A stretch of 34,045 bases of DNA, taken from NCBI GenBank assembly GCA_023659785.1, contig JAGXOR010000003.1, forward strand, positions 1 through 34,045, written 5' to 3'. The notes under the pieces are model-generated. The model made no database searches and was not told the DNA's origin. It was given only the letters and a program-made list of their open reading frames with translations. The translations under genes were made by a program, and so were the position numbers. This document shows, piece by piece, positions 2,549-12,238 of the stretch (positions are counted from its first letter, which is position 1; each line of letters opens with the position of its first letter). Source of the DNA: Methanomicrobia archaeon LH_S13. Its GTDB lineage: Archaea; Halobacteriota; Syntropharchaeia; Alkanophagales; Methanospirareceae.

Positions 2549-3808
2549 TTATAAAGAAAGTTTTGCCAATTCATCCACTATCTCCTCTGCAATCACTTTT
2601 TTCGCACCTTTTACATGCTTTACTCCCTCTGCTCCTCCTCTTATTATATACACCTCGTTTTCTTTGGTCCCTATGCCCCCCTTACCAACATCATTTACAA
2701 CTACCATCTCAATGTTATGATTCTCCATCTTTTCCCTCGCCGCGCTTATCAGTTCCTCTTTAGAGACGTCCGTTTCTGCTTTAAATCCTACAATAACAAG
2801 TTCAGGGAATTCATCCCTCACTTCTTCTATCAGTTTCCCGGTGGGAACGAGATGCAAGTAGAACTCTTCGCCCGATGAAATCTTCGCTTCGGACGAGTCG
2901 GCAGTGAAATCCGAGATAGCGGCAGAAGAAATAAGCACGTCATATCCTTCCTCTTCCTCTTTCTCTTTACCTTCACGAAATTCAGTAACGCATGCATCAA
3001 TCATCTCACGTGCAGTCTCCACCCTGACTTCCTTTATTCCATCTAAATTCAACGGCGTTTTGCTGTGCACAAGCGTAACCTCAGCACCTTGTTTATACGC
3101 TTCCTTAACGAGTTCAATCCCCGTGCGACCCGAACTTCGATTTGTTAATATCCGTATAGGGTCTATCGGCTCGATGGTAGGTCCCCCTGTAATAAGGATA
3201 CGCTTTCCTGCAAGCTTTTTTAGCGACAGCACACGCTCAACCGCGAGAATTATGTCTTCAGTCGAGGCGATTTTCGCAAGTCCTTCCTCAAATTTAGGTC
3301 CTATTACGGTTACGCCGAGTTTTCGCAGCTTGTCGTGGTTCGCGATTAGAATCGGGTTTTTATACATGGTCTCGTGCATAGCAGGCACGACTATAATGGG
3401 TATTCCAGAGCCGAAGGCAGTGGTTGCAAATGCCGTTACGGGTGTATCCGAAACACCACCCGCTATCTTGTTCAGCGTGTTTGCCGTACAGGGTGCGATG
3501 ATAAACAGGTCTGCTGAACCTTCCATCCCCAAAAACACCACATGCTCTATATTCCCCATTAATTTCGTTATCACCTCATGCCCCGTGGCATAATGAAGCG
3601 TATAAGGATGAATTATTTCCATTGCCGCTTCACTCATCACCCCATACACATCTGCACCATGTCTTATCAATTCATGTGCGAGTTCAACGGTTCTTACCGC
3701 GGCGATAGAGCCAGTAACACCTAATACAATGCTCTTTCCTGATAAAGCGTGGCTTTTTGTGCCCTTTATTCTCAAGGTTGGGTGTGACCCTCTTTCTCCC
3801 TCCGCCAT
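2549..3808 (-). CDS. coaBC: Bifunctional phosphopantothenoylcysteine decarboxylase / phosphopantothenate-cysteine ligase
   Basis: LGVTGSIAA, IAPCTANTL, PAMHETM, ITGGPTIEPIDPIRILTNRSSGRTG, VGFKAE. Start moved to ATG 3808 because the longer ORF runs through tRNA-Ala. Confidence 0.93.
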   Translation of the reverse strand: MAEGERGSHPTLRIKGTKSHALSGKSIVLGVTGSIAAVRTVELAHELIRHGADVYGVMSEAAMEIIHPYTLHYATGHEVITKLMGNIEHVVFLGMEGSADLFIIAPCTANTLNKIAGGVSDTPVTAFATTAFGSGIPIIVVPAMHETMYKNPILIANHDKLRKLGVTVIGPKFEEGLAKIASTEDIILAVERVLSLKKLAGKRILITGGPTIEPIDPIRILTNRSSGRTGIELVKEAYKQGAEVTLVHSKTPLNLDGIKEVRVETAREMIDACVTEFREGKEKEEEEGYDVLISSAAISDFTADSSEAKISSGEEFYLHLVPTGKLIEEVRDEFPELVIVGFKAETDVSKEELISAAREKMENHNIEMVVVNDVGKGGIGTKENEVYIIRGGAEGVKHVKGAKKVIAEEIVDELAKLSL

Positions 3809-3810
3809 AA

Positions 3811-3883
3811 TGGACCGGTCGGGATTTGAACCCGAGGCCTCCCGCACGCCAAGCGAGTGATCTTCCAACTGATCTACCGGCCC
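3811..3883 (-). tRNA. tRNA-Ala(GGC), CCA not encoded
   Basis: GGGCCGGTAGATCAGTTGGAAGATCACTCGCTTGGCGTGCGGGAGGCCTCGGGTTCAAATCCCGACCGGTCCA folds as a cloverleaf with anticodon GGC and the G3:U70 alanine identity pair. Confidence 0.96.
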
Positions 3884-4344
3884 TATATGATATTCCCCGA
3901 TGCATCTTCTATTATCCTTTCACAATAAAAGCACCTGAATAGAGGAGGGTTCTCGCTCACCGTAATGAACTTAGAGATAACCGACTCCTTTTCCGCATTG
4001 GATATGCAATTAGGATTCGCACATCTTATAATCCCCTCTATTGACTTTGGAAGGTAAACCTTATGCTTTGCCACTACTTCAGAATCCCCTATTATGTTTA
4101 TCTTTGCGTTTGGTGCAATCAACGCGATTTTATCAACCTCCTCGGGCTTTAATTCCCTGTCTTCCACTTTTACTATGTCCTTTCTGCCCATCTTCTTGCT
4201 TCGCACATTCATCGCAACGCTTAGAACCGCGTTAGTCCTTGCATTTATCCCTAATATTTTCAGCACATTCAGCGCCTGTCCCCCTGGAATATGGTCAATA
4301 ACAGTTCCGTTTTTGATTGGCACTACTTTTAATTCTTTTTTCAT
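3883..4344 (-). CDS. pyrI: Aspartate carbamoyltransferase regulatory chain
   Basis: IKNGTVIDHI, KDIVKVE, Zn ligands CANPNCIS and CFYCE. Confidence 0.96.
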   Translation of the reverse strand: MKKELKVVPIKNGTVIDHIPGGQALNVLKILGINARTNAVLSVAMNVRSKKMGRKDIVKVEDRELKPEEVDKIALIAPNAKINIIGDSEVVAKHKVYLPKSIEGIIRCANPNCISNAEKESVISKFITVSENPPLFRCFYCERIIEDASGNII

Positions 4345-4349
4345 CTTAG

Positions 4350-4423
4350 TGGGGCCGCCGAGATTTGAACTCGGGACAACTCGGTCTTCAGCCGAGCGCT
4401 CTCCCAGCCTGAGCTACGGCCCC
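4350..4423 (-). tRNA. tRNA-Phe(GAA), CCA not encoded
   Basis: GGGGCCGTAGCTCAGGCTGGGAGAGCGCTCGGCTGAAGACCGAGTTGTCCCGAGTTCAAATCTCGGCGGCCCCA folds as a cloverleaf with anticodon GAA. Confidence 0.96.
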
Positions 4424-4444
4424 TCTTCTACACATACCCTATTT

Positions 4445-4488
4445 CTTTTTCAATTATAAATATACTCCTAATTTTATATTTCTATATA
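4445..4488. promoter_or_regulatory. Divergent AT-rich promoter region (tRNA-Phe unit / tldD)
   Basis: Minus-strand TTTATAAT lies about 30 nt upstream of the tRNA-Phe 5' end; the same block reads TTATAAA on plus about 30 nt upstream of the tldD ATG. Confidence 0.55.
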
Positions 4489-5904
4489 ATGGAAGAAGAG
4501 CTAAAAAAAGCGATGGATTCTGTAGTATCGAAAAATGCAGGAGTGAGATATGTCGATATTCGCATGGAAAAGGGTTACGCAACTGCTATCGAACTAAGAG
4601 ATGACACCCTTAGAGAGATGAGCTATGGTATAGACGAAGGCATGGGTGTAAGGGTACTATATAAAAATTCGTGGGGTTTTTCTTCCTCTAATGATATCAC
4701 AAAGCCTCGAATAAAAGATACTTTTGAAGACGCTTTGGACACCGGTAGAGCGCTGTCGCTATCGAAATCGAATAAGGATGCGGAAGCGGTAAAAATTGCA
4801 GACGCTGTACCGATAAACGACTATTTTAAACTAAAGCCGAAAATAAACCCTGATGATGTCGGCATTGAAGAGAAGAAGCACATGGTTAAAGAAGCGTATA
4901 AAGCGGCAAAGAAACACTCTCCATACATAAAAACTATCTCTACCTTATATCTGGATGGTTACGAGGAGCAGATATATGCAAATTACGATGGAAGCTACAT
5001 TGTAATGGAAATGCCGGCAGTTTTTATGCGTGTAAGGGTAGTAGCGAGAAAGGGGGATGTTTTGCAAGAAGGCACAGAGGGTATCGGAGCAGTGGCAGGT
5101 TTTGAAGTCATAGAAGAAGAAAATCCTGAGGTCGTGGGTATAAAGGCTGCGGATAAAGCTGTCAGGCTGCTTGACGCTGAGCTGCCCCCTGCGGGTGAGC
5201 TGCCTGTAATAATGGACCCGAAGCTTACAGGAGTTTTTATGCACGAAGCGCTCGGACATGCGGCAGAAGCTGACCACGTATTATACGGAGAATCAATACT
5301 AAAGGGGAAAATAGGAGAAGCAATAGCCTACGAAGGTTTGACTGTTGCTGACGATCCGACCATCGAGAACTCGCATGGGTATTATAGATACGATGATGAA
5401 GGAGCGAGGTCAAAAAGAACAGAGATGATAAAAGACGGCATCTTAGTTTCTTATTTGCATACACGGGAAACCGCAGGCAGGTTAGAAGCGATGCCAACTG
5501 CGAATGCGCGTGCCGCGGATTATTCTGAAGTTCCTTTGGTCAGGATGAGCAACACGGTAATTGAGGAAGGGGACTGGAATTTTGAAGATATGCGAGAAGA
5601 TATACGGTTTGGGATATACGCTAAAGGTATGCGAGGAGGGCAGGTGGATACAGTAAGGGGGGAATTTCAGTTCAGTGCAGAGGAAGCGTTTCTGATAGAA
5701 AAGGGTGCTCTTACAAAAAGGTTGAAAAACGTTTCTCTTTCCGGTAGAACTCTTGATGTATTGAAGAACATAGATGCCGTGGGGAATGATAAAAAGCGAG
5801 GTTCAATAGGGTTTTGCGGTAAAGACGGTCAGGAGGTACCTGTTTCTGAATACGCTCCGCATGTCCGCGTGAAGAAGATATTAGTTGGCGGGGCTTCCTC
5901 ATAG
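4489..5904 (+). CDS. tldD: TldD/PmbA family metalloprotease (TldD type)
   Basis: HEALGHAAEAD zinc motif, YDDEG, RMSNT, GFCGKDGQEVPVS. Confidence 0.92.
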   Translation: MEEELKKAMDSVVSKNAGVRYVDIRMEKGYATAIELRDDTLREMSYGIDEGMGVRVLYKNSWGFSSSNDITKPRIKDTFEDALDTGRALSLSKSNKDAEAVKIADAVPINDYFKLKPKINPDDVGIEEKKHMVKEAYKAAKKHSPYIKTISTLYLDGYEEQIYANYDGSYIVMEMPAVFMRVRVVARKGDVLQEGTEGIGAVAGFEVIEEENPEVVGIKAADKAVRLLDAELPPAGELPVIMDPKLTGVFMHEALGHAAEADHVLYGESILKGKIGEAIAYEGLTVADDPTIENSHGYYRYDDEGARSKRTEMIKDGILVSYLHTRETAGRLEAMPTANARAADYSEVPLVRMSNTVIEEGDWNFEDMREDIRFGIYAKGMRGGQVDTVRGEFQFSAEEAFLIEKGALTKRLKNVSLSGRTLDVLKNIDAVGNDKKRGSIGFCGKDGQEVPVSEYAPHVRVKKILVGGASS

Positions 5905-12138: not shown

Positions 12139-12238
12139 AAAACCTTTCTTTAAAAAAGAAAGATAACTTTACCAAAGAAACAACTATTTTTTGATAAAAC
12201 TTTCTTCTAAAAAGTTTTAATAGAAAGGTGATAATAAA

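Follow-up and report, generated by a model that had tools for sequence, protein, structure and literature searches.

The DNA analysed here, called the window throughout, is a stretch of 34 045 nt from Methanomicrobia archaeon LH_S13 (GenBank assembly GCA_023659785.1, contig JAGXOR010000003.1, positions 1 to 34 045 of the forward strand). The source organism is a methane-oxidising archaeon of the ANME-1 group (Methanophagales), represented by a MAG of 264 contigs (85.55% complete) in which 37 tRNAs were found. On the minus strand, tRNA-Phe, pyrI, tRNA-Ala and coaBC follow one another in this order at distances of 5, -1 and 2 nt (Table 1).

Table 1. Features of the tRNA-Phe/pyrI/tRNA-Ala/coaBC locus, in order of transcription
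Feature	Coordinates	Strand	Basis
TATA-like TTTATAA, candidate promoter of the whole unit	4454..4460	-	Position only; centre about 34 nt upstream of tRNA-Phe G1
tRNA-Phe(GAA)	4350..4423	-	Rfam tRNA, 65.5 bits; ARAGORN agrees but adds one base
Spacer CTAAG, 5 nt, tRNA-Phe A73 to pyrI ATG	4345..4349	-	Read in sequence
pyrI, aspartate carbamoyltransferase regulatory chain, 153 aa + TAG	3883..4344	-	ORF list and Pfam
Shared base, third base of TAG = tRNA-Ala G1	3883..3883	-	Sequence, ORF list, ARAGORN, Infernal
tRNA-Ala(GGC), no encoded CCA	3811..3883	-	ARAGORN and Rfam tRNA
Spacer TT, 2 nt, tRNA-Ala A73 to coaBC ATG	3809..3810	-	Read in sequence
coaBC, phosphopantothenoylcysteine synthetase/decarboxylase, 419 aa, ATG 3808	2549..3808	-	Pfam

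The pyrI product matched PF01948 (1.7e-33) and PF02748 (1.7e-15). It has both the allosteric domain and the C-terminal four-Cys zinc domain of PyrI, with Cys-x4-Cys and Cys-x2-Cys in the translation. The coaBC product matched DFP (1.4e-50) and Flavoprotein (1.1e-28), and its start codon was fixed at the ATG at 3808 because the N-terminus directly after this ATG is conserved family-wide. The spacer before pyrI contains no Shine-Dalgarno sequence. The gaps of 5 nt from tRNA-Phe to pyrI and 2 nt from tRNA-Ala to coaBC are too short to house a promoter. tRNA-Phe(GAA) is the sole Phe gene and tRNA-Ala(GGC) the sole Ala gene with a GGC anticodon among the 37 tRNAs of the MAG, so both must be made from the pyrI locus. 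In this MAG, pyrI and pyrB do not form the classical pyrBI operon: pyrB is on another contig, with a 423-aa ORF and no tRNA after it. Weak, sub-threshold Rfam matches to mascRNA-menRNA, mir-1822 and sR3 were rejected as chance or simple tRNA likeness.

The preliminary description of this DNA had claimed that the pyrI stop codon shares its last base with tRNA-Ala, and this claim was confirmed. Direct reading of the sequence and the ORF list both run pyrI on the minus strand from the ATG at 4344 to a TAG at 3885-3883. The ends given for tRNA-Ala by ARAGORN and by the Rfam tRNA model in Infernal (61.1 bits, full model 1-71, gathering score 29) were identical, so that this gene is valid by independent programs. 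The Rfam alignment gave an acceptor stem GGGCCGG/CCGGTCC with G3:U70 and A73, and the Ala identity features are present. As the ends from both programs and the acceptor stem agree, the third base of the pyrI TAG is G1 of tRNA-Ala. Because tRNA-Ala begins with GGG, only TAG can overlap it, and by one base. The geometric consequence drawn earlier also holds: a cut by RNase P 5' of G1 must leave a pyrI RNA that ends in ...UA. The effects suggested there, an off-switch or decay trigger on the one hand and completion of UAA by added A on the other, are possible outcomes of such a cut.

A sequencing error had been named as a reason for which the overlap might be discarded. Three contig sets and 6 further distinct loci, all carrying the same junction, speak against it. 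Two of the contig sets do not differ from each other and possibly represent the source assembly; the third (X4, a strain variant) has 7 listed differences in 3500-4700, none of them at 3883-3885. As the sets stem from a single study, they are not wholly independent. An assembly error is an unlikely cause of the overlap. At 3883/3884, the contigs of run X1, which is labelled RNA-Seq but is probably DNA, indicate that further ANME-1 strains, differing in their junctions here, occur in one and the same sample. One X1 strain has a long promoter-bearing spacer, and another appears to read TGA abutting G1 (loose contig ends).

Junctions in related loci

Loci were pooled from 30 loci in 40 relatives and 80 related loci, and duplicates were removed. 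L006-L029 and L036-L090 were kept, giving 59 distinct family loci, with assignment to ANME-1 by identity ranking. L033 and L035, which belong to a sister family within the same order, were counted as outgroups. A tRNA-Ala follows pyrI in 41 distinct ANME-1 loci. Conservation of the overlap had been proposed as a check, and in these loci it recurs beyond a single genome: the gap from the pyrI stop codon to G1 is -1 in 7 loci, 0 in 7, 4 in 2, 9 in 1, 15 in 1 and 37-760 in 23. The -1 overlap was seen in GTDB genus codes g1, g3 and g14, among others, and the tRNA ends were confirmed with Infernal in 12 chosen loci, including the -1 loci L012, L014, L011 and L066. The gap between A73 of tRNA-Phe and the pyrI ATG (42 loci) is 5 nt in 8 loci and at most 12 nt in 19. 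The gap between A73 of tRNA-Ala and the coaBC ATG (41 loci) is 2 nt in 25 (including the window's own locus, read by eye, as the pattern missed its N-terminus), 6-10 nt in 6, 15-38 nt in 9 and 208 nt in 1. By our own reading of the junction table, 8 distinct loci (L006, L012, L013, L014, L015, L016, L045 and L050) are tight at every one of the three junctions (at most 12, at most 0 and 2 nt). In L023, L024, L054, L061, L079 and L081, the tRNA-Ala/coaBC spacer of 18-38 nt is made of TCCA/TCCC-type repeats ending in A-runs, and these six spacers contain no Shine-Dalgarno-like purine block.

Other tRNAs can occupy the same place. In another ANME-1 lineage, tRNA-Pro(TGG) follows pyrI, with a gap of 0 in L072 and L077 and of 24 in one locus. 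In another family of the class, tRNA-Leu(CAG) follows pyrI with gaps of 0, 1 and 1 (L030-L032). No same-strand tRNA was found after pyrI in the 28 other non-family loci (L033-L035 and L091-L115, several with short flanks). No tRNA lies upstream of coaBC in 9 outgroup genomes, and a tenth genome gave no coaBC match. The nearest outgroup coaBC has a ribosome-binding site of the GGTGTGAGGA type in place of the upstream tRNA.

The overlap seems to have been reached by two routes. In the main -1 type (the window, g3, g14 and L045), 2 extra bases near the end of pyrI, as compared with gap-0 relatives, shift the last codons (...GNIC/GNII), and one substitution creates the TAG. In L066, the C-terminus is that of the gap-0 and gap-4 relatives and the junction reads TAG-GG against their TAA-GGG; L066 is a single MAG contig, in which a 1-base assembly error is possible. 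The clade of L066 contains gaps of 143, 61, 15, 9, 4, 0 and -1, and its short remnants retain the 3' end (last bases) of the longer spacers. A tree was built from PyrI without its last 7 codons and from CoaBC (57 rows, 40 scored). On this tree, the tight (at most 0) and spaced states change at least 6 times, and three-state coding needs 8 changes; the root is unknown, basal branches are short, several supports are below 90, and recombination between lineages would inflate the count. The pattern of junctions points to spacer erosion rather than to a purpose-built device, because gaps of 15, 9, 4, 0 and -1 occur in one clade, two routes lead to -1 and a gap of 0 is as common as -1.

pyrI is under purifying selection: over 66 pairs from 12 tight loci, dN/dS has its median at 0.105 and reaches at most 0.185. 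Together with its Pfam domains, this identifies it as a functional same-strand upstream coding sequence whose stop codon lies partly inside a mature tRNA. dS between the window and the other loci of the main -1 type is 0.47-0.70; with pyrI so constrained, the overlap has persisted through considerable divergence.

Proposed transcription and processing of the unit

In spaced loci of four clades, the same element of about 38 nt starts right after the pyrI stop codon. Its 14-nt core has 22 copies in the genome at no more than 1 mismatch, while about 0.02 exact copies are expected. Copies lie about 20-45 nt upstream of a start codon, where the start codon fell within the sequence shown, and further copies lie just upstream of tRNA-His and tRNA-Ser(GCT). 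The element includes a TTTAAAAAA stretch, spaced so as to fit a TATA box, and is conserved in other ANME-1 genera as the pyrI/tRNA-Ala spacer. Its appearance suggests either a promoter cassette of consensus type or a small repeat that is mobile. One copy of this intergenic element is found in the window at about 12142-12180 (+), and the genome has it in 21 other places. If this dispersed repeat is mobile, some spacers could be insertions instead of being ancestral. The 3' ends of the spacers are alike across clades and unlike other copies of the repeat (homology judged by eye), which argues that the spacer is ancestral and that the tight junctions are deletions. In other spaced loci, T-runs directly follow the pyrI stop codon; they fit the oligo-T terminators of archaea.

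The element is most plausibly the driver of tRNA-Ala and coaBC in the spaced relatives. It is absent between pyrI and tRNA-Ala in the tight loci, where tRNA-Ala and coaBC should consequently depend on transcription through pyrI. This comparison supports co-transcription of pyrI with tRNA-Ala. In the window there is likewise no room for a promoter or a terminator and no promoter-like repeat at the junction; TATA-like strings are present inside the 3' end of pyrI and are considered below.

We infer co-transcription, the sites of cleavage and the fate of the cut RNA from the arrangement of the genes. tRNA-Phe, pyrI, tRNA-Ala(GGC) and coaBC would form one co-transcribed unit, driven by the tRNA-Phe promoter. 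Its internal spacers would have been eroded to the physical limit, with the TAG/G1 overlap as the last possible step. Cleavage by RNase Z after A73 of each tRNA would give pyrI a leader of 5 nt and coaBC one of 2 nt, so that both messages would be effectively leaderless and carry 5'-monophosphate ends. The scheme assumes that archaeal ribosomes start translation on an RNA whose leader is 5 nt long and whose 5' end is a monophosphate. Cleavage by RNase P 5' of G1 of tRNA-Ala would produce the processed pyrI RNA ending in ...UA, and an intact UAG would exist solely on uncut RNA, for instance for ribosomes trailing the polymerase. Factors of the Pelota/ABCE1 type would rescue ribosomes that run to the cut end, and the exosome would clear the RNA. 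The net outcome would be low-yield expression of a regulatory-subunit gene lodged between the two tRNAs of a strongly transcribed operon.

Several of the factors called for are encoded in the genome. An archaeal RNase P RNA scored 195.5 bits, RNase Z 366 bits and Pelota 333 bits, and two RNase PH-domain genes of exosome type (Rrp41/Rrp42-like) lie side by side. Their presence makes rescue and decay, or addition of A, both mechanistically available to a UA-ended RNA. The RNase Z gene (4216-5109, +) and the RNase P RNA gene (5195-5470, -) are convergent and 85 nt apart on contig G000:C253 (4216-5470). On balance, and with restrained confidence, the locus is read as an eroded co-transcribed tRNA-mRNA unit in which the overlap would be a tolerated by-product and not a dedicated switch.

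Tight packing around tRNAs extends to other genes of this MAG. A same-strand ORF starts no more than 10 nt after 7-8 of the 37 tRNAs, and an ORF stops no more than 8 nt before 3 of the 37. Among the ORFs placed after a tRNA are a Rossmann-type oxidoreductase (10 nt past tRNA-Lys(CTT)), a PHP-like protein (7 nt past tRNA-Met) and a MoaA-like protein (7 nt past tRNA-Gln(CTG)), with names and starts judged from recognised N-terminal motifs. A tRNA followed within 1-20 nt by an ORF start, with no visible Shine-Dalgarno sequence, was noted on contigs C248, C127, C111, C99, C203, C29 and C185 of the genome (G000). The tRNAs include Lys(CTT), Met, Gln(CTG), Thr(TGT), Ser(GCT), Lys(TTT) (followed by an rpoH-like ORF) and Thr(CGT) (followed by a ProRS-like ORF). 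On contig C190, a 167-aa ORF stops 1 nt before tRNA-Val(CAC), and on contig C129 a 158-aa ORF stops 8 nt before tRNA-Pro(GGG). The packing suggests that tRNA-led messages are common in this genome. The pyrI case is the most extreme example of what appears to be a broader tendency for tRNAs to lie within operons. Most genes of this MAG have no tRNA neighbour, and tRNA punctuation is thus not the main mode of processing across the genome.

A broader scheme, chromosomal tRNA punctuation in ANME-1, can be entertained tentatively and is possible without being probable. RNase Z would make the near-leaderless 5' ends of pyrI, coaBC and several other tRNA-led genes, and RNase P the 3' end of pyrI. The excised stop-less RNA would be translated, and termination through addition of A by the exosome, or rescue of the Pelota type, would yield full-length PyrI.

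Alternative explanations

Neutral compaction is a rather unlikely alternative. tRNA-Ala and coaBC would then be made mainly from a cryptic promoter in the 3' coding region of pyrI, read-through would be minor and the overlap inconsequential for pyrI expression. Two TATA-like strings of the window would suit such a promoter, TTTTATTG at -47..-40 and ATAATAGA at -32..-25 from G1, the latter centred about 28 nt before G1; promoter distances of tRNAs in this genome vary widely. Both strings are somewhat commoner in tight loci. TTTTATTG occurs in 9/16 tight loci, 2/5 loci with a gap of 1-30, 5/22 spaced loci and 6/14 loci with no tRNA; the corresponding counts for ATAATAGA are 10/16, 2/5, 6/22 and 5/14, and its mild excess in tight loci is confounded by kinship. 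Four of the 16 tight loci (L010, L011, L016 and L050) nevertheless have neither string, as judged by eye. Conserved residues, Phe-Tyr-Cys and Ile-Ile-Glu, dictate the two strings, which are also found in loci with no tRNA. The earlier proposal of TTTTATTG as an internal promoter stands in so far as the string is present at 3930-3923, but it is unspecific, being the coding sequence of the Phe-Tyr-Cys of the zinc motif. The codons used at the last 22 positions of pyrI showed no clear sign of an internal promoter, and TATA-like distances upstream of all 37 tRNAs were too variable to predict a start site. The coding origin of the two strings and their counts weaken the case for a cryptic promoter. 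Even with such a promoter, the cut pyrI RNA would still arise, because nothing between pyrI and the tRNA stops read-through from upstream.

Completion of the stop codon as in mitochondria is improbable as the main route. The exosome would add a non-templated A to the UA end, giving UAA, and the excised RNA would be the main translated form. The enzymes may be at hand in the two RNase PH-domain genes. TAG is the one stop codon able to overlap G1, and adding A to TA gives TAA, the stop codon of all 7 gap-0 tRNA-Ala loci. According to the accessible parts of two reports, A-rich tails are made by archaea that have exosome genes and not by those that lack them (PMC1635327; PMC4227792), but the tails are described in the first of these as heteropolymeric and linked to decay (PMC1635327). 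Gaps of 0 and -1 moreover interchange freely, for which no special mechanism is needed.

A little more improbable still is a purpose-built switch, in which maturation of tRNA-Ala would shut off or time the synthesis of PyrI and so couple pyrimidine regulation to tRNA processing. The recurrence of a tRNA directly after pyrI in three settings (tRNA-Ala, tRNA-Pro(TGG) and tRNA-Leu(CAG)), and in none of the 28 remaining non-family loci (some with short flanks), speaks for it. Rearrangement breakpoints at tRNA genes could also account for this recurrence, however. The ANME-1 junction spans -1 to 760 nt, with 23/41 loci widely spaced, and other genes of the genome show equally tight tRNA packing. 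An artefact, be it of assembly or of the 5' end assigned to the tRNA, is scarcely credible in spite of the fragmented and incomplete MAG (264 contigs, 85.55%), given that two predictors agree on the ends of tRNA-Ala, that strain variant X4 keeps the junction and that the 6 further loci, counting L066, come from different MAG isolates (CSMAG_1265, 1244-F3-H4-B6, CR_Bin_179, BS750m-G82, Hel0.bin107 and binchicken_co395_157).

Significance and known systems

If the transcript is processed as its anatomy implies, archaeal tRNA-processing enzymes would define both ends of a coding message, and a stop-less mRNA would be made routinely, as a natural archaeal case. To our knowledge, archaea have no tmRNA, and their handling of stop-less RNAs in vivo has been little studied. 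The series of junctions within the family (-1, 0, 4, 9, 15 and 37-760 nt) offers a test of the length of spacer that a stop codon needs beside a tRNA, and also of RNase Z products as leaderless mRNAs and of exosome tailing as stop completion. The arrangement also matters for annotation, since overlapping genes of this kind may be truncated or discarded by gene callers. If the overlap is tolerated compaction and nothing more, it is a modest curiosity.

The preliminary description knew of no such arrangement in archaea. Literature searches, with subscription journals outside their coverage, likewise found no archaeal description; within the same coverage, no published gene was found that is bounded by tRNAs on two sides (5 and -1 nt), with the next gene 2 nt on, across an archaeal family. 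One further paper, PMC3848588, turned out to have no bearing on the question. The idea that an overlap between a coding sequence and a tRNA yields non-stop mRNA is already in print for bacteria (PMC4131195). In the accessible text of that paper, Hudson, Lau & Williams (2014) proposed bacterial same-strand overlaps of coding sequences and t(m)RNA genes as sources of non-stop mRNA (PMC4131195). They counted 250 cases with the coding sequence upstream among 115 660 t(m)RNA genes, with an overlap table covering 2031 bacterial genome projects (PMC4131195). The cases go back to few evolutionary events kept in related genomes, such as the 44/44 cases of the FtsW family at tRNA-Ile(CAT) in Helicobacter, and the ribosomes concerned are rescued in bacteria by tmRNA, with no archaeal tmRNA found by these authors (PMC4131195). 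As there, a Pfam-positive coding sequence runs into a valid same-strand tRNA whose maturation should remove the stop codon. Unlike those cases, listed in a table without archaea (PMC4131195), the pyrI locus is archaeal, has a tRNA also 5' of pyrI and has coaBC 2 nt past tRNA-Ala.

In Thermococcus kodakarensis, tRNA-Lys lies within the 159-nt 5' UTR of TK0306, a single case mentioned in passing in the accessible part of the report (PMC4247193). An archaeal tRNA is thus apparently co-transcribed with a downstream protein gene, as is proposed here; TK0306 differs in its long leader, with no abutment and no overlap of a stop codon. The secG-leuU operon of E. coli reportedly includes a spacer and keeps its stop codon intact, unlike the pyrI/tRNA-Ala junction with its spacer of -1 nt. 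According to the accessible part of the source, the secG-leuU co-transcript is separated by RNase P (PMC2241853). The likeness lies in a coding message and a downstream tRNA on one transcript, putative in the case of pyrI, with RNase P as the separating enzyme.

In animal mitochondria, tRNAs punctuate the transcript, and messages that end in U or UA are completed to UAA by polyadenylation. pyrI resembles such messages in being bounded directly by tRNAs on both sides (5 and -1 nt, with 2 nt to coaBC); cleavage by RNase P and RNase Z would leave it almost no UTRs and an incomplete stop codon. It differs from them in lying on the chromosome of a free-living archaeon, with ordinary promoters elsewhere and only some genes affected. 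Many ANME-1 relatives retain spacers that have a promoter-like element of their own, and completion by A is a proposal in ANME-1.
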